Assembly: GCA_019057375.1 (NCBI GenBank)
Contig: DXJF01000138.1
Coordinates: 1 to 10,886, forward strand
Length of the DNA stretch: 10,886 bases
Reading direction: 5' to 3'
Origin: Candidatus Heimdallarchaeota archaeon
GTDB lineage: Archaea > Asgardarchaeota > Heimdallarchaeia > Heimdallarchaeales > Heimdallarchaeaceae
The notes beneath the pieces are model-generated. The model was given only the letters and a program-made list of their open reading frames with translations, was not told the origin of the DNA and did no database searches. The position numbers and the translations under genes were made by a program. Below, piece by piece: positions 2,729 to 9,826 of the stretch (position 1 is its first letter; each line of letters starts with the position of its first letter).

Positions 2729-2752
2729 TTATCCTTGATAATCTTATTATTA

Positions 2753-3124
2753 ATGATAACTGGTGTGGATGTTGTCTTTATTCATGTTAAAGATCCAGTA
2801 AAAATGATGAAATGGTATCGAGATGTGCTTGAGTTAGAATCGGATTTTTCAACTCCTGACTTACATTGGCAAGAATTTACATTTCTTGAGAAAACACCTT
2901 CTAGATTCGCCTTAGACAGTGTAAGTGAGAATCCTTCAGAAGTAGAGCAACAGAAGTTAATGATCTCTTTTAAAGTAAAAAATCTGAAAGCATTCGTTGA
3001 GAAATTGGAATCTAAAGGAGTAAAATTCCGCGGTTCTTATAAAATAATTGATGTAGGACCAACACTATTTGCGACTATCCAAGATATTGAGGGTAATTGG
3101 ATACAAATTTCTCAAAGAAAGTAG
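2753..3124 (+). CDS. VOC (glyoxalase/bleomycin-resistance) family protein
   Basis: 'GVDVVFIHVKDPVKMMKWYRDVLEL', 'ISFKVKNLKAFVEKLESKGVKF' and 'FATIQDIEGNWIQISQ' give the paired beta-alpha-beta-beta-beta VOC pattern. ATG 2753 is a more plausible start than the ORF-track start at 2735. Confidence 0.85.
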   Translation: MITGVDVVFIHVKDPVKMMKWYRDVLELESDFSTPDLHWQEFTFLEKTPSRFALDSVSENPSEVEQQKLMISFKVKNLKAFVEKLESKGVKFRGSYKIIDVGPTLFATIQDIEGNWIQISQRK

Positions 3125-3231
3125 TGTATCCTTTTTCCAATTGAGTATAATTCTTTTTTGGAAATGTTGAAAATGGCACAAGAAGTATTTTAAATGAGTA
3201 ATCATAATAAACCAAAAAAAGAGAGATTAAA

Positions 3232-4359
3232 ATGGTTGATATTATAGATTATCTACTTTCTTTTGATGTCAATATATTCTTTATTACTCTTGGAATTTAC
3301 AGCGGTTTTCTAGTAGTAATGTTTCTTGGATCAAAATTTTTACCTGGAATCAAAACACAAGGAGAGCAGCTAAAAGATGGTTCAAGGAAAGACTACAAAC
3401 TGACAGGTTTGATGTTATTTATGGTCTCAACTTTAACAGCTGTATTAGTTTTTGTCCTAAATGAGACTGTTTCTCCAAAATGGAATTTAACATTTATAGC
3501 TAGAGCATTTTTTCCCTTACTAATCATTGCTACTATTTTCTCATTTATATGGAGTCTTTTACTATTCTTTTTGGGAAGAAGAAAACAAGGAGAGAGCAAA
3601 AGTAAAGGTGTAAAAGGGATTTTACATGATTTTTGGTTTGGTCCTGAGTTGAATCCAACCTTGTGGGGAGTAGACCTCAAGATGTTTACTTATCAACCAT
3701 CACTAATTGGTCTTTCATTTATCAATTGGAGTTTTCTCTTTCTGCAATTACAGGAATCAGGTTATATTTTACCGCAAATGTGGATGTATCAAGGATTCTG
3801 GTGGTTCTATCTGTTTACCCATTATATCCTTGAAGAATTCATGCTTACAACATGGGATATTATGGCAGAGAACTTTGGATTCATGTTAGTTTGGGGAGAT
3901 TTAGTTTATGTTCCATTTTTCTATTCTATTGCAGGGTGGTTTATTATAATTCAAACTGAAGTTTTCAGTATTTACGCGATTATTGTATTATGTCTAGCTT
4001 ATTTAGTCTCAATCTGGATTTTTAGAGGATCAAATATACAGAAATTTAGATTCAAAAGAAATCCTAAAGTCAAAATTTGGTTTAAACCAGCTAAAACCAT
4101 AGAGGGAAAAATACTCATCTCTGGATTCTGGGGAATAGGTAGAAAACTAAACTATTCAGGAGAAATACTCACTTATCTTATTATAACTTTAACAACAGGA
4201 ATATACTCACCAATTCCCTTTATTCTACCACTATCATTATTTATTCTTCTTGCTCATAGAGCATGGCGTGATGATCGGAGATGCAGGAAAAAATATGGAA
4301 AACTTTGGGATGAATATTGCTTAATTGCTAAATATAAGATGATACCTAAAATCTACTAG
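3232..4359 (+). CDS. ERG4/ERG24 family (Delta14-sterol reductase / LBR / DHCR7-like) integral-membrane NADPH-dependent reductase
   Basis: Family motifs occur in the correct order: DFWFGPELNP (cf. DFFMGRELNPR), DLKMF, TTWDIMAENFGFMLVWGDLVYVPFFYS (cf. TTMDI..DGFGFML.FGDL.WVPF.YS), IFRGSNIQKFRFKRNP (cf. IFRGANSQK..FRKNP), LISGFWGIGRKLNYSGE (cf. LLVSGWWG..RHPNYLGD), HRAWRDDRRCRKKYG..W.EYC and a terminal YKMIPKIY. Multiple TM segments. Which double bond it reduces cannot be assigned from sequence. Confidence 0.9.
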   Translation: MVDIIDYLLSFDVNIFFITLGIYSGFLVVMFLGSKFLPGIKTQGEQLKDGSRKDYKLTGLMLFMVSTLTAVLVFVLNETVSPKWNLTFIARAFFPLLIIATIFSFIWSLLLFFLGRRKQGESKSKGVKGILHDFWFGPELNPTLWGVDLKMFTYQPSLIGLSFINWSFLFLQLQESGYILPQMWMYQGFWWFYLFTHYILEEFMLTTWDIMAENFGFMLVWGDLVYVPFFYSIAGWFIIIQTEVFSIYAIIVLCLAYLVSIWIFRGSNIQKFRFKRNPKVKIWFKPAKTIEGKILISGFWGIGRKLNYSGEILTYLIITLTTGIYSPIPFILPLSLFILLAHRAWRDDRRCRKKYGKLWDEYCLIAKYKMIPKIY

Positions 4360-4409: not shown

Positions 4410-5417
4410 GTGACTATTTCCAAGGTGATAGATTTGAGTGAAAAATCAGTAATAACACAACTACTAAATTCAAATGAACCTGCGATTAGATTGAAAACTT
4501 ATTTATGTCTCTTGGAACACGATTATGATACTTCAGAGGTAAAAAAGCTAAAAGTCAATTTAAAGAAAGAATCAACACTAATATCTAGTTTATTCTCTTG
4601 TCTGCCGAAAGACGAAACTAGTAAAATTTCTCATGTATATACAAAATGGCAGGGTGTTCACTGGATTTTATCACAGTTGGCAGATATGGGTTATCCTCCT
4701 GGTGATAGTGATTTAATTCTAAGTATAAATAGAGAAATGGAATGGTTACTTAGTAGTAAGCGCTGGGAATCTAAACCATTGATTAATGGTAGAAGACGCT
4801 TTTGTGCTTCTTATTCTGGAAATGGTCTTTATGCCGCTCTTTCTCTGGGCTTTTTTGATGAAAGATGTAAGATATTAGCTAATAGGTTAATTAAAAATCA
4901 ATGGAGTGATGGCGGTTGGAATTGTGATCGAAAACCAGCAGCAAGTAAGTCTTCTTATCATGAGAGTCTAATTCCTTTGAGATCTCTTAATCGTTATTTA
5001 CATATAGAAAAAACCCCACAATTAACAAACACTATAGATAAAGCCGCAGAGCTATTTCATAAAAGAAATCTCTACAAACGAATCAGCGACGGAGAGGTTA
5101 TTAACAAAAGATGGTTGTTACTTCATTATCCTCCTTATTGGCATTATGATATTCTCTTTGCTCTGAAGGTTCTAGCAGAAGCTAACAAGCTACAAAATAA
5201 ACGATGTAACGATGCACTAGATCTACTAGAAGCTAAAAGATTAGGTGATGGAGGATTTCCAAAGGAAGAAAAATATTGTCAGTCATCAAATCCAGAAACA
5301 AGATATTTTACTCCTGGTGATTGGAAGCCAGTTAATAAGGGTAAAATGAATGAATGGGTTACAATCGATGCTCTTTTTATTTTAAAGAAAGCGAAAAGAA
5401 TCGATATTGATTATTAG
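4410..5417 (+). CDS. Prenyltransferase/squalene-cyclase-repeat (QW motif, alpha-alpha toroid) protein of unknown function
   Basis: It has a QW-type repeat 'ILANRLIKNQWSDGGWNC', a degenerate second repeat 'ALDLLEAKRLGDGGFP', and aromatic blocks 'YTKWQGVHW' and 'HYPPYWHYDILFALKVL'. At ~330 aa it is a single barrel with no DXDD/DCTAE motif. The true start may be TTG 4434 (AGGTGAT SD at 4423-4429). Confidence 0.6.
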   Translation: MTISKVIDLSEKSVITQLLNSNEPAIRLKTYLCLLEHDYDTSEVKKLKVNLKKESTLISSLFSCLPKDETSKISHVYTKWQGVHWILSQLADMGYPPGDSDLILSINREMEWLLSSKRWESKPLINGRRRFCASYSGNGLYAALSLGFFDERCKILANRLIKNQWSDGGWNCDRKPAASKSSYHESLIPLRSLNRYLHIEKTPQLTNTIDKAAELFHKRNLYKRISDGEVINKRWLLLHYPPYWHYDILFALKVLAEANKLQNKRCNDALDLLEAKRLGDGGFPKEEKYCQSSNPETRYFTPGDWKPVNKGKMNEWVTIDALFILKKAKRIDIDY

Positions 5418-5458: not shown

Positions 5459-7165
5459 TTAGAAAATTATTCTATAGGGAGGATTCTTTGCCATTTCTTT
5501 CAGTTCTTCCTGTGAGGCAGTTGCCATAATATATGTCTTGATTCCTCCAATTAAGTTTCGAACATCAAAGTTCCTTTGCAGAAGATTCATTTGAGAGATA
5601 TAGGCTCTAAAGCCTTCTTGACAGAACGCATAAATTGGTTTATCTTCAGGTAATTCATCTATTCTTTGTCTCATCTCAAATTCTGAAATATGAACAGCGC
5701 TTTTTATTGTGATTATTTCAAACTCATCATCTCTTCTAACATCGACTAAGAATGAGCTATTCTCAACTAAATCATCAACATCATGCCAATGATAAGGTTT
5801 CATCTTACCTTTAACCATATTTGCGGCTATATGACCAGCCATATTAACAGGATCTCTAGCAGAACCAAATGGGGGAGCATAAGTTAATTCTAACTTCTCC
5901 AAATCAAAAACTGTTCCACCAAAATGAATAACTGTGGAAATAACATCTATTCTTTTTTCTGCTCCATCTCCTCCTAGCACTTGAGCTCCTAGAATTTTAC
6001 CGTTTTTCTTATCAAAAAGCAATTTAGGTGCTAATTTATTGCCTCCAGGATAGTAACTAGAATGGTTCATGGGGTGAAGGTATACTTTTTCGTATTCTAT
6101 ATCCATGTTTTTGAGCATCTTTTCATTTAATCCAACTTGAGCTACAGTTAGATCAAAAACCTTGACTACAGCTGCTGCAAGAACACCTTCATATTCTTCA
6201 GTTTCTCCAGCAATATTATTAGCAGCTATCCTCCCTTGTTTATTAGCTGGACCGGCTAATGGAACAGCTGTTCTCTCCTTTGTAATATAATTTGTAACTT
6301 GAACAACATCTCCAACAGCGTAAATGCTAGAATCACTTGTTTGCATTTTTTTATTGACAACTATATGTCCTCGGGAACTAATTTTTAGTCCATAATCTTT
6401 AGCTAACTCTGATTCTGGTTTAACACCAATAGCTAAAACTACCATATCAGTTTCAATTTTTTTACCACTCTGAGTGACAACTACAGCTCTGCCTTCATCA
6501 TTATTCTCAAAAGAATCGACACCATCTCCAAGAACTAAATCAACCCCATGTCTATAAAGCTCATAATGTACATATTGAGCCATTTCTCTATCAAGAGAAA
6601 TCATGACTTGATCCATAAGCTCTACAACAGTAACATCTAGACCTCTTTCTTTGAGATTTTCAGCCATCTCTAGACCAATAAAACCTCCTCCAATAACAAC
6701 TGCATTTTTTGGTTTATTAGTTCCAATAAAATCATCCATTCGTAAAGTATCTGGAATTGTTCGTAAAGTAAAAACAGGAACTTGGTCTAAGCCTTTGAAT
6801 GGTGGTTTAATGGGTTCAGCACCAGGAGAAAGAACAAGAATATCATAGTTAAGAAAATATTCTTCACTTGTGTTTAGATTCTTTATAGTAACTTTCTTTT
6901 CCTCTTTATCAATTGCAGTTGCTTCATTGTTGAGTCGAACATCGATATTAAAACGATCCAAAAAAACTTGAGGTGTAACAAGTTCTAGATTTTCTTTGTC
7001 TGTGATGATTCCACCTACATAATAGGGAAGTCCGCAATTTGCATAGGAAACATAAGCTCCTCGCTCTAAAATTATGATTTCTGCAGTTTCATCTAATCTT
7101 CTAAGTCTTGCTGCAGTCGAAGCTCCTCCTGCAACACCACCTACAATAACAACTTTCTTTGACAT
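5459..7165 (-). CDS. cdr: CoA-disulfide reductase with C-terminal rhodanese domain (CoADR-RHD / Npsr-like persulfide reductase)
   Basis: FAD motif VIVGGVAGGASTAARLRR, redox Cys in SYANCGLPY, NAD(P)H motif VIGGGFIGLEMAE, 'IYAVGDV', 'LAGPANKQGR', 'LELTYAPPFGSARDPVN', and a rhodanese domain 'VDVRRDDEF...YAFCQEGFRAY'. Confidence 0.9.
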   Translation of the reverse strand: MSKKVVIVGGVAGGASTAARLRRLDETAEIIILERGAYVSYANCGLPYYVGGIITDKENLELVTPQVFLDRFNIDVRLNNEATAIDKEEKKVTIKNLNTSEEYFLNYDILVLSPGAEPIKPPFKGLDQVPVFTLRTIPDTLRMDDFIGTNKPKNAVVIGGGFIGLEMAENLKERGLDVTVVELMDQVMISLDREMAQYVHYELYRHGVDLVLGDGVDSFENNDEGRAVVVTQSGKKIETDMVVLAIGVKPESELAKDYGLKISSRGHIVVNKKMQTSDSSIYAVGDVVQVTNYITKERTAVPLAGPANKQGRIAANNIAGETEEYEGVLAAAVVKVFDLTVAQVGLNEKMLKNMDIEYEKVYLHPMNHSSYYPGGNKLAPKLLFDKKNGKILGAQVLGGDGAEKRIDVISTVIHFGGTVFDLEKLELTYAPPFGSARDPVNMAGHIAANMVKGKMKPYHWHDVDDLVENSSFLVDVRRDDEFEIITIKSAVHISEFEMRQRIDELPEDKPIYAFCQEGFRAYISQMNLLQRNFDVRNLIGGIKTYIMATASQEELKEMAKNPPYRIIF

Positions 7166-7177
7166 GGTAATTCACTA

Positions 7178-7222
7178 TGTTCATAGATATTGAACAAAAT
7201 CGTGAGGTAGATTTTATTTAAA
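7178..7222 (-). promoter_or_regulatory. TATA-like box (TTTAAATA, ~7215-7222 on the minus strand) and palindrome TGTTCA-N7-TGAACA (7178-7196) upstream of cdr
   Basis: A perfect 6-bp inverted repeat sits at the expected transcription-start region, between the TATA-like box and the ATG at 7165. Confidence 0.4.
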
Positions 7223-7224
7223 AC

Positions 7225-8754
7225 TCAATCGTTTGTACGATTTTTTCTTCTAGAAATAATAGAATGAAATGTTAAGATACATAGTGAAAAGATAATAATT
7301 ACTGTTGAAAATGATATCTTGTTTGTTTTTGTTGGTTCAGAACCTAGGGGGTAGATATCAACTGATTGAGCAGTACCATCTATATAATAATCTCCTTCTC
7401 CTTCATAGTCCATCCACATATTTCCTTCCTTTAGAGTAGAATCAAACCAAGTGTTATTGGTTCCTGAATCATAAGCTTGGCTGTTTCCACCAAGGTTGTT
7501 ATTGTAAAATTCATTGTGATGAATAACATTATTAGATGATTGTACATCAAACTGGATACCATATCCAGTATTTTCATGTATATAATTGCTGACGAAGTTG
7601 GAATCATCTACATTGTCACAGAATATTCCTATTCCTTCAGTCCTAGCAATATAATTGTGACTCATGAAAATATCTAAACATGATGCAATATATACACCTT
7701 GAAAATGAGCACCTATAATATCGTTATTCATGAAAACGATTTTTGAAACAAAATGAAGTAGAACGCTTTGATATGTGCTATCAGAGAAGTTATTGTAAAT
7801 GCAAGTAAAATATTCACATGATTCAACAAATAAATTGTACTGAGAACTTGATGTACAAGTATTTTTAGAGAAAACATTATTGTTAGAATTTGATTCAAGC
7901 TTAATTCCTATATCTGTGATCGTTATGGTATTGTTGTAAATAAAATTATTAGAGCTCTCAGAAAAATAAATACTGTCTTCAGTTATAACTCCCTCAATAA
8001 TGTTTGATGTTATCTCTGAATAATCAGTTTCGTAAAAACTTACACCTCTCTGAACGTCCATATAATTGTTTGATATTGTTACGTATGTACATCCAAATAC
8101 GCATCTCACACCTTCAGTACTTTCAAGTATATTATCGTAGAAATCAATATAATCGGAACCTACACAAGCCAACCCAGTTAAACAAGCTTCAAGTTCATTG
8201 TCAGAAATCTCAATATCCTCACTCCACCAAATATCTATTGCAGGTTGGCAATAGCGAAGGATATTGTTTTTAATGACAATCCCGTCGGAATGTAATATTC
8301 TGATACCTCTGTTAAATTCATAATCGAAATCAATAGTAGTTTCTGTTATTTTTCCCGTTCCGCTTGCAATATCTTCCAATATTATACCATTGCTGTTATC
8401 TGAAGTTATGGTGATATTTGTAATCCTAAAATGCTTCGTAGTATTCTGAATGTAAATCGAAGCAGCTGTTGGAGATAATTCTGAAAAATTCATATCTTGT
8501 ATAAGGTAAGGATTCTCAGTTGTTCCATTTCCTAGGAATCCATAATCAACAAAATCAGAATCCTCATTGATATAGATATATGAAAAAGACGAAAGATTCA
8601 TTTCATATGTTAAAGCTTGAATATTATTTGGCAGGTTGGAGAAATTTTCAGAACTATGTAATAAAATTGAAAGAATCAAAACCAGAATCATAAGTTCTTT
8701 TTTCTTAAATCCCCTTGTTCTGTTCATTCTCTCATTAATAATATGATTGTTCAA
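7225..8754 (-). CDS. Secreted/surface right-handed parallel beta-helix (NosD/pectin-lyase-like) protein with C-terminal membrane anchor
   Basis: N-terminal basic residues followed by a hydrophobic signal ('KKKELMILVLILSILL'), 'GNGTTENPYLI' motif, many Asn/Ile-rich beta-helix rungs ('I.NN.I', 'GI.L'), and a C-terminal TM helix followed by RRKNR. The start is TTG 8754 or ATG 8727. Confidence 0.8.
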   Translation of the reverse strand: MNNHIINERMNRTRGFKKKELMILVLILSILLHSSENFSNLPNNIQALTYEMNLSSFSYIYINEDSDFVDYGFLGNGTTENPYLIQDMNFSELSPTAASIYIQNTTKHFRITNITITSDNSNGIILEDIASGTGKITETTIDFDYEFNRGIRILHSDGIVIKNNILRYCQPAIDIWWSEDIEISDNELEACLTGLACVGSDYIDFYDNILESTEGVRCVFGCTYVTISNNYMDVQRGVSFYETDYSEITSNIIEGVITEDSIYFSESSNNFIYNNTITITDIGIKLESNSNNNVFSKNTCTSSSQYNLFVESCEYFTCIYNNFSDSTYQSVLLHFVSKIVFMNNDIIGAHFQGVYIASCLDIFMSHNYIARTEGIGIFCDNVDDSNFVSNYIHENTGYGIQFDVQSSNNVIHHNEFYNNNLGGNSQAYDSGTNNTWFDSTLKEGNMWMDYEGEGDYYIDGTAQSVDIYPLGSEPTKTNKISFSTVIIIFSLCILTFHSIISRRKNRTND

Positions 8755-8782: not shown

Positions 8783-9826
8783 CTATTCAGAAAGAAGCTC
8801 TTCAACAATTTTTCTCTCGAATTCATAAACTGGTTCGCTCTGCCAGATCTTATGTCCCAAAATTTCATTAATTCTATGCATGTATTTGTTACTCTGAGCA
8901 CTGCTTGTTCTCCAATACTTTGCTTTAGTTTCTTTCAGTAGAGTTAATAGTGATAGATATTTTATAGCCAATCCCAAACCATTTCCTCTGTGCTCAGGAA
9001 TTATCCCTGTTTCATCTTGCCATGCAATTGCAGGTTGATATTTGTTTATTGCAAATGTTGTATATCCAACTGGTTTCTCTGTCTCTTCATGCACTGCTAC
9101 AAACGAGATATACTTCTGTCCAGTTTTTTTATTTCTTTCCTGAATTGCTTGATAACGTTCTACAGTGATATTCATATCCTCTTCTGTTAGATCTTCTCTT
9201 GGCATGTCATTCCAAACTTGTTCAACAATTTTCACAAACCCCTCTTCATCAAAATGGGACTTGTAATCTCCATCATCAACTCGAACAATTCTATAACCAT
9301 TACTTAGTGCATGTTCTCTTTGCTTCTTCGCTTCTTTTTCAACATCCTTGAGAACAGCTTCTTCCAAATCAACTATTATAATGACTTCTTCATAGCTGTG
9401 TTTTTCATTAAATTTCTGTAGGAAATGTTCCCCTGGAGAATGCTTAGGTGAATCAGCTCCAACCTTCTTGATTTCTTTGGGTAAAACTTTTACCATTTCT
9501 TTGAGAATTCTTGAGCCTACTCCCTTCCTTCTTTCTTTTGGAATAACATATAATCTGAACCATGATCTGTCTAAATTCTCATACATAGTATTCCAAAATA
9601 TAACGCCAAAACCAATCACTAAGTTATTTTCATTAACCGCTATTGCTTTCATTTTAGCAGAACCCTTCTCACGAGGTATGATCCAAAAATTTCTGTAATA
9701 ATCTAATGAAGGTGCGAGAAAACCATTCCATTCTTCTTCACATTGTTGCCTTAAAGCGAAATACTGCTCATGAAATTTTTCAGGAATATCTTCGTTTTGT
9801 CCAATGTAAATCTGGATAGAAGGCAT
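8783..9826 (-). CDS. Tandem-domain GNAT family N-acetyltransferase
   Basis: Two acetyl-CoA-binding motif A copies, 'VIPKERRKGVGSRIL' and 'GIIPEHRGNGLGLAIK', plus C-terminal 'SNKYMHRINEILG'. Confidence 0.85.
   Translation of the reverse strand: MPSIQIYIGQNEDIPEKFHEQYFALRQQCEEEWNGFLAPSLDYYRNFWIIPREKGSAKMKAIAVNENNLVIGFGVIFWNTMYENLDRSWFRLYVIPKERRKGVGSRILKEMVKVLPKEIKKVGADSPKHSPGEHFLQKFNEKHSYEEVIIIVDLEEAVLKDVEKEAKKQREHALSNGYRIVRVDDGDYKSHFDEEGFVKIVEQVWNDMPREDLTEEDMNITVERYQAIQERNKKTGQKYISFVAVHEETEKPVGYTTFAINKYQPAIAWQDETGIIPEHRGNGLGLAIKYLSLLTLLKETKAKYWRTSSAQSNKYMHRINEILGHKIWQSEPVYEFERKIVEELLSE

Follow-up and report, generated by a model that had tools for sequence, protein, structure and literature searches.

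A short-form ERG4/ERG24-family reductase of bacterial descent: an orphan sterol-type gene in one subclade of the Heimdallarchaeaceae

Sterols are a hallmark of eukaryotic membranes, and a gene for a sterol-type reductase in an Asgard archaeon raises the questions of where it came from, whether it bears on the origin of the eukaryotic enzymes, and what its product acts on. The locus lies in the window, i.e., the whole stretch of DNA analysed here, which is the complete 10,886-bp contig C90 of a Candidatus Heimdallarchaeota genome (G000; 3.47 Mb, 159 contigs). The gene encodes P0001, a 375-amino-acid protein of the ERG4/ERG24 family, and we know of no other sterol-type enzyme under selection in Asgard archaea. 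Its Heimdall ortholog is listed as 'hypothetical' by NCBI and carries the automatic name delta14-sterol reductase in IMG; in the literature on Asgard or Heimdall sterol reductases and ERG24 we found no description of the gene, though it has been public for years (in AB_125). The gene and its putative promoter element are:

3232..4359, + strand: short-form ERG4/ERG24-family reductase gene (P0001), from Pfam, the match to MaSR1, an AlphaFold2 (AF2) model and the ratio of nonsynonymous to synonymous substitution rates (dN/dS)
3186..3195, + strand: TATA-like box TATTTTAAAT, 37-46 nt upstream of the reductase ATG, from sequence inspection

The open frame starts with ATG and has zero internal stops, and P0001 matches Pfam PF01222 (ERG4_ERG24) with an E-value of 1.6e-70 and 238.5 bits (cut-off 27) over profile positions 72-432 of 432. 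This is its single Pfam domain, with nothing extra. The motifs GRKLNYSGE (residues 303-311), IFRG (263-266) and HRAWRDD (342-348) are all present. An initial annotation of this DNA had described an intact gene with the family motifs at 3232-4359, had placed it in the ERG4/ERG24 family and had remarked that the N-terminal Tudor/RS region of lamin B receptor (LBR) is missing, and it was right in each of these respects; P0001 has no Tudor and RS fusion and also clusters apart from LBR in the gene tree. Two T-runs (3132-3136 and 3154-3159) follow the stop of the upstream VOC gene and precede the TATA-like box, which together suggests, as far as the sequence can be read, that the reductase has its own archaeal-type promoter. 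A search of sequencing runs listed none of RNA that covers the locus, a result that does not bear on expression.

The AF2 model of P0001 (79 homologs) is confident (predicted local distance difference test score, pLDDT, 94.7; predicted template-modelling score, pTM, 0.92) and contains about nine transmembrane helices. In a Foldseek search of the PDB its sole strong match was the bacterial sterol reductase MaSR1 (4QUV; TM-score 0.83-0.84, root-mean-square deviation 2.4 A, 362 columns), followed distantly by SRD5A and ICMT structures. P0001 thus has the polytopic fold of the MaSR1 type, with the first helix of the long form (ten transmembrane helices) missing, and the comparison with MaSR1 proposed in the initial annotation gave a superposition (TM-score 0.83). 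Residue equivalences were taken from a HMMER alignment of P0001 with MaSR1, mapped onto published residues. The predicted catalytic pair of MaSR1 is Tyr241/Asp363 (Y257/D374 in yeast; PMC12489058), and its NADPH-site residues N359/R395 correspond to N547/R583 of LBR (PMC4951196). Y193 and E311 of P0001 align with the former pair, the Tyr being kept and the Asp replaced by Glu in P0001 and in every short-form bacterial member, a conservative and subfamily-wide change; N307 and R343 align with the latter pair and are invariant in both family alignments. In the model, the predicted site of catalysis and NADPH binding is lined by Y193, N268, K271, N307, E311 and R343.

The nearest relatives of P0001 (67-95% identity) are all from Heimdall genomes, and they are followed by a large set of bacterial proteins of about 355-375 amino acids that are 45-54% identical. 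A scan of GTDB with one genome per species yielded 178 relatives, and the best 80 of these 178 were examined as loci: nine from Heimdall or 'uncultured archaeon' genomes and 71 from bacteria, with L023, from a congeneric metagenome-assembled genome (MAG), as a tenth Heimdall record. Most of the bacterial loci belong to Myxococcota of sterol-producing families (Enhygromyxa salina, Plesiocystis pacifica, Minicystis rosea, Nannocystis, Paraliomyxa, Sandaracinaceae), the remainder to filamentous cyanobacteria (Rivularia, Hormoscilla, Nostoc, Calothrix, Coleofasciculus, Cyanosarcina) and to single genomes of Gemmataceae and Anaerolineales. The homolog of Nostoc sp. DSM 114161, which is 53% identical, heads a cluster in which it is followed by squalene epoxidase (SE), oxidosqualene cyclase (OSC), four Rieske/KshA-type oxygenases, ERG2, EBP and a GGR-like reductase. 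At 23 of the 71 bacterial loci, 9 of the 10 cyanobacterial ones among them, a cyclase gene is found no more than 10 kb from the reductase gene, as against none of the nine archaeal loci. The short forms of Calothrix (sp. NIES-4105) and E. salina, 63% identical to each other, have been listed as the putative 'C-14 reductase' of cholesterol producers, an assignment made by homology (Lee et al. 2023, PMC10202945).

This bacterial subfamily also accounts for the apparent peculiarities of the archaeal motifs. P0001 carries the subfamily signature (GRK[LI]NY[TS]GE and HRA[WA]RD at a length of about 365 amino acids). GRK(L/I)NY(T/S)GE and FRG, which served as the patterns for retrieving the bacterial loci, are invariant or near-invariant throughout the short-form proteins, and the variants K for H, E for D and xIFRG are invariant in all bacterial proteins of the subfamily, among them those encoded within sterol gene clusters. 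RKLNYSGE and SIWIFRG, which had been taken as a hint of a different substrate, therefore mark the whole subfamily and give no sign of an archaeon-specific substrate. In 69 bacterial short-form proteins, 76 positions show an identity of 95% or more; the ten Heimdall sequences keep 73 of these positions, and the sole clade-wide Heimdall change at these positions is G284F, in a loop. Among the bacteria, the sterol-producing myxobacteria (E. salina, P. pacifica, M. rosea, N. punicea; L098-L107) hold two or three paralogs of the family, the extra ones being long or divergent (25-33% identical to P0001) and grouping with eukaryotic or DHCR7-like sequences. One short-form member from Streptomyces eurocidicus (P0146, 573 amino acids) has a C-terminal extension of about 210 amino acids and branches inside the short-form clade.

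Two gene trees were reconstructed, a FastTree of 132 rows and an IQ-TREE of 60 rows (LG+C20+F+G4 with posterior mean site frequencies, PMSF; supports given as ultrafast bootstrap/SH-aLRT), and both were concordant. The Heimdall sequences form one clade (100/100 in IQ-TREE) inside a clade of 31 tips (100/99) that also contains cyanobacterial, Nannocystaceae and other Myxococcota sequences, and which is itself nested within further bacterial short-form clades (99/95 and 92/96). The immediate sister of the Heimdall clade is supported at 56/20, too low to name a donor. The named eukaryotes (newt LBR, a Priapulus LBR-like protein, Coemansia ERG24, a plant delta14-reductase, two Amoebozoa and an apicomplexan) are all placed on the opposite side of the tree, where they are joined by long-form bacterial proteins. 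Approximately unbiased (AU) tests (LG+F+G4, -fast searches) rejected a clade of Heimdall plus all eukaryotes (log-likelihood difference 480, p 1e-41), a clade of Heimdall plus the core ERG24/LBR sequences (p 7e-21), and a position of Heimdall outside the bacterial short-form clade (log-likelihood difference 80, p 0.004). The reductase of this Heimdallarchaeaceae subclade is a member of the bacterial short-form subfamily, gained once by horizontal transfer. Horizontal acquisition was one of the options raised in the initial annotation and is the one that prevailed; nesting within bacteria, which the annotation had named together with inactivity as speaking against its own reading, is what the phylogeny with bacterial and eukaryotic homologs gave.

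The distribution of the gene in Asgard archaea was surveyed in 400 genomes from 85 genera and 33 families, in which the host genus (g1) is represented by 25 species. The reductase was found in the host genus only, in 11 of its 25 species, and is absent from the other four genera of the same family, including two closed genomes. An RpoB tree rooted with those genera (a single marker, analysed by a quick method) divides the genus into two clades, with the reductase in 11 of the 12 species of one and in none of the 8 species of the other; at least two changes are required on this tree. The exceptional species (G011) reflects an assembly gap, one contig ending in the MFS transporter gene (at about window position 1809) and another starting at window position 9265. 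In the gene tree the Heimdall orthologs fall into the groups that their hosts form in the RpoB tree, the frames are open at full length in nine species, and dN/dS is 0.08-0.12 in unsaturated pairs and 0.04-0.06 in older, dS-saturated pairs. Because of the restriction to one subclade, the match between gene tree and RpoB tree, and the dN/dS values, we conclude that the gene was acquired once, in the ancestor of the 12-species subclade, and then descended vertically under purifying selection. It is a recent bacterial import into a narrow lineage, and its base composition is fully adapted to the host. A clean empty site was not found in three species that lack the gene (G005, G008, G012), in which the best match to the neighbouring flavoprotein is 57-59% identical and its surroundings are not syntenic. 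In G016 the ortholog (L114, G016:C36) is split into two parts in different frames, 7031-7543 (N-terminal part, 57% identical) and 7561-8196 (C-terminal part, 78% identical); the split is due either to a frameshift in a pseudogene or to an error in the assembly.

The host genome is 89% complete with an estimated contamination of 4.95%. The G+C content of the contig is 32.9%, that of the genome 33.1%, and the tetranucleotide correlation is at the median. Six further species of the genus share the gene order at the reductase locus, one of them on a 153-kb contig, with the MFS transporter, a winged-helix protein and the VOC protein on one side, and a CoA-disulfide-reductase-rhodanese protein, NosD-like proteins, a GNAT and a nitroreductase on the other. 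Protein clusters at 90% identity bear the NCBI names Candidatus Heimdallarchaeota or Heimdallarchaeaceae archaeon and include HeimAB125_17980 (OLS30822.1) of AB_125, and the loci from GTDB genomes agree with the Heimdall assignment of the orthologs. The archaeal, possibly Asgard host suspected from the DNA alone is thus confirmed by congeneric orthologs on Heimdall records, composition and synteny.

A profile search of the host genome gave no match to SQHop_cyclase_C, SE, SQS_PSY or p450, and a tblastn search of it with the proteins of the Nostoc cluster gave no OSC, SE, Rieske demethylase or ERG2, in agreement with the initial annotation, which knew of no sterol pathway in archaea and had asked for squalene synthase (SQS), SE and OSC or squalene-hopene cyclase (SHC) to be sought. 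Genes of sterol synthesis (SE, OSC, CYP51, SdmAB, ERG2) were found near the reductase at none of the nine archaeal loci, and a true cyclase in none of the 25 genomes of the genus. Weak partial matches to cyclase repeats (25-40 bits, in frames of 139 to 369 amino acids) do occur in the genus, all but one (G006) in species that lack the reductase. Asgard archaea were previously found to be without cyclases and squalene synthase (PMC7306690; PMC8237579), and according to a preprint of 2025 no sterol metabolism had been identified in Asgardarchaeota, although an Asgard START protein can transfer sterol in vitro (PMC12139934).

On balance we favour the view that P0001 is a working orphan sterol-type reductase, derived from bacteria by transfer, that acts on exogenous sterol or a very sterol-like lipid. 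P0001 would be a membrane-embedded, NADPH-dependent reductase of carbon-carbon double bonds, from the short-form branch to which homology and position in gene clusters assign the role of sterol C-14 reductase in cholesterol-producing cyanobacteria and myxobacteria. Its gene was gained from a bacterium by an ancestor of the subclade and has been inherited vertically under purifying selection since, as the trees, the distribution and the dN/dS values show. Because a host without SQS, SE, triterpene cyclase and P450 cannot make the canonical substrate, the substrate would reach the membrane from outside, as a sterol or a polycyclic lipid very much like one, perhaps from eukaryotic or bacterial detritus in the marine sediment or from a partner organism. 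NADPH would be bound from the cytoplasmic face by Asn268, Lys271, Asn307 and Arg343 and would deliver the hydride, while the substrate would enter from the membrane and its double bond would be protonated by Tyr193, held by Glu311. Candidate position-specificities are delta14, delta7 or delta24(28).

Two kinds of genes might be thought of as partners of the reductase, and both were examined. The first lies directly downstream of it in the window:

4410..5417, + strand: gene for an (alpha/alpha)6-toroid protein of 335 amino acids (P0354), without Pfam match, from AF2 and Foldseek

The AF2 model of P0354 has a pLDDT of 92.3, and in Foldseek the squalene-hopene cyclase is the best match by E-value (2.5e-5) but with a TM-score of 0.46, next to GH76 with a TM-score of about 0.5. 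The protein has the QW-like motifs QWSDGGWNCD and GDGGFP and an invariant Cys and His, and lacks a DxDD motif. Members of its family are widespread in Heimdall, Thor and Loki archaea, one of them being DSAG12_03765 of Promethearchaeum syntrophicum, and occur in several candidate phyla of the Bacteria. The P0354 gene stands between the reductase and the flavoprotein in G000 and G024 only, and elsewhere in the genomes G005 and G021. A conserved two-gene module of P0354 and the reductase was rejected, with adjacency in two species and a family widespread in reductase-less Asgard genomes. The second candidate lies on another contig of the host genome (L120; G000:C92, 10874-11983, - strand), where a gene for a 369-amino-acid membrane protein with two tandem EXPERA/EBP domains (PF05241, E-value 8e-20), reminiscent of TM6SF1/2, adjoins a DegV fatty-acid-binding gene, with an SCP2 lipid-transfer gene at a distance of 1.4 kb. 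Of the 400 Asgard genomes, 16 from 6 genera have EXPERA genes; in the host genus five genomes have both EXPERA and reductase, six the reductase only and three EXPERA only, so that the two are not tightly linked, and a partnership was rejected.

Several other explanations of the gene have to be weighed. The host belongs to the Heimdallarchaeia, the group thought closest to eukaryotes, and the family is best known from eukaryotes, so the gene could be taken for a vertically inherited Asgard precursor or sister of eukaryotic ERG24, TM7SF2 and LBR that bears on the origin of sterol synthesis and of LBR. We consider this highly improbable: the eukaryotes stand on the other side of the tree and their union with Heimdall is rejected by both AU tests cited above, P0001 scores 213 bits against the bacterial MaSR1 and 123 bits against 9L5R, another solved chain with the title 'Delta(14)-sterol reductase', and the gene is missing from 389 of the 400 Asgard genomes, including the other genera of the same family. 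The 'eukaryote-type' label of the initial annotation, with its suggested relevance to the origin of eukaryotic sterol and LBR genes, therefore does not hold; nested among bacteria and confined to a subclade of one genus, the gene tells us nothing about how eukaryotic ERG24/LBR arose. That the contig is instead a bacterial contaminant mis-binned into an archaeal MAG, as might be suspected from the bacterial nature of the closest non-archaeal homologs and from the contamination estimate of the genome, has a negligible probability. We regard contamination as excluded because the synteny and the composition are those of the host: G+C content and tetranucleotide usage are genome-typical, and the same gene and neighbourhood recur in at least ten Heimdall MAGs that several studies assembled independently, with contigs as long as 153 kb. 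The congruence of the Heimdall grouping with the host RpoB tree also speaks against it.

Given a transferred gene in a genuine host, it could still be a decaying relic of the transfer without function, since it is an orphan without a pathway and is broken into two frames in G016; this is very unlikely in view of the dN/dS of 0.04-0.12 across the subclade, the invariance of the catalytic and cofactor residues and the nine species with full-length frames. A more serious alternative, possible though in our judgement unlikely, is an active enzyme recruited to an endogenous non-sterol isoprenoid (a polyprenol or dolichol, a quinone side chain, an unsaturated archaeol precursor or a cyclic terpenoid). 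The failure to find sterol-forming genes in the host is consistent with it, as are the richness of archaea in isoprenoids, which is general knowledge, the inclusion of polyprenol reductases in the wider fold superfamily, SRD5A being among the next Foldseek matches, and the toroid protein, weakly similar to squalene-hopene cyclase, that adjoins the reductase in two species. However, this toroid lacks a DxDD motif and is adjacent in only 2 of about 8 informative loci, and its family is spread through Asgard genomes without the reductase. Moreover, 73 of the 76 subfamily-invariant positions, including the checked catalytic and NADPH-site residues, are unchanged relative to the enzymes of bacterial sterol clusters, which argues against a change of the substrate class.

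An orphan reductase working on an external sterol has its own difficulties. Delta14 sterols are short-lived intermediates that are unlikely to be abundant in sediments, so that an enzyme with an external substrate may use another double bond. A sterol uptake system was not identified in the host. The 'C-14 reductase' label of the bacterial short forms itself comes from homology, and the reductase may be dispensable in some lineages, because the ortholog of G016 is split in two frames. The pathway genes, finally, count as 'not found' in the host rather than as proven absent, because its genome is 89% complete; the absence of a cyclase is repeated in the 25 congeneric genomes. A bolder proposal would be that a lineage of the Heimdallarchaeaceae takes up sterols or sterol-like polycyclic lipids and remodels them in its own membrane with the acquired reductase, possibly together with other sterol-type components that turn up sporadically in these genomes, namely the EXPERA/EBP protein of L120 and the START-type lipid-transfer proteins reported for AB_125; we hold this to be doubtful, and if true it would be the first sterol metabolism in Archaea, with an Asgard archaeon adopting a 'eukaryotic' membrane lipid by means of bacterial genes.

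The genes around the reductase, a nitroreductase gene among them, provide no decisive clue to its function. They include:

452-1897, - strand: MFS transporter gene, efflux-type, from locus context
2024-2728, + strand: winged-helix gene, from locus context
2735..3124, + strand: VOC/glyoxalase-superfamily gene, 129 amino acids (Pfam PF00903, E-value 4e-8)
5459..7165, - strand: gene for a CoA-disulfide-reductase-like flavoprotein with C-terminal rhodanese (Pfam Pyr_redox_2, E-value 3e-63; Rhodanese, 2e-11)
7225-8754, - strand: NosD/beta-helix surface-protein gene, from locus context

The VOC gene lies ahead of the reductase gene in four genomes (G000, G009, G013, G023) and in part in a fifth (G020), and the flavoprotein-rhodanese gene is the usual convergent neighbour of the reductase (G001, G009, G010, G023, G024). 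In G013 (L010; G013:C78, 9909-10178) the latter gene is cut down to fragments matching residues 1-26 and 500-568, an internal deletion right beside an intact reductase gene. The NosD gene is single in the window, whereas sister species (L010, L011, L014) have it in tandem, as two or three copies that have diverged to 40-64% identity. In the divergent intergenic region between the MFS and winged-helix genes, two exact copies of the palindrome GTTTCTC-N8-GAGAAAC (1914-1935 and 1958-1979; 0 expected by chance) flank an AT-rich, TATA-like stretch; they are probably operators of the winged-helix regulator.

The finding matters in two respects. An intact reductase under selection is a clonable handle on the question whether any Asgard archaeon handles sterol-like lipids, and we know of no biochemical characterisation of the short-form 'C-14 reductase' subfamily, central to bacterial cholesterol synthesis, to which it belongs. 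As a lineage-restricted bacterial import it provides no evidence for an archaeal origin of ERG24/LBR, and a tempting over-interpretation is thereby removed. Orphan, horizontally acquired ERG4/ERG24 reductases were already known; an archaeal member is new.

Among known systems, the closest are the short forms of the bacterial sterol clusters, which share with the archaeal proteins a length of about 360-375 amino acids without the first helix of MaSR1, an identity of 45-53% over the full length and the signature, and among which the archaeal clade is nested. The archaeal gene differs in standing alone, with SE, OSC, CYP51, a Rieske demethylase and ERG2 found neither in its neighbourhood nor in the rest of the genome, and its clade in carrying G284F. 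MaSR1 of Methylotuvimicrobium alcaliphilum has the same fold, is 35% identical to P0001 and shares with it the catalytic Tyr as well as the Asn and Arg that bind NADPH, but is a long form of 427 amino acids and ten transmembrane helices on the eukaryotic, long-form side of the family, with RHMNYFGD in place of the archaeal RKLNYSGE. Eukaryotic ERG24, TM7SF2 and the C-terminal domain of LBR belong to the same Pfam family and are expected to share the chemistry, whereas they are 28-37% identical to P0001 and form a separate clade, and the Tudor/RS N-terminus is missing in P0001. A parallel to an orphan gene is the delta24 sterol reductase of Coxiella burnetii, a homolog in an organism that does not make sterols, which is thought to have been horizontally acquired and to act on outside sterol; Drosophila and C. 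elegans, cholesterol auxotrophs, reportedly keep sterol-pathway genes as well. As in the orphan reductases of the Coxiella type, a single ERG4/ERG24-family gene is kept here without the upstream pathway, but Coxiella, Drosophila and C. elegans live inside or feed on eukaryotes, whereas the present host is a free-living or syntrophic archaeon of marine sediments.

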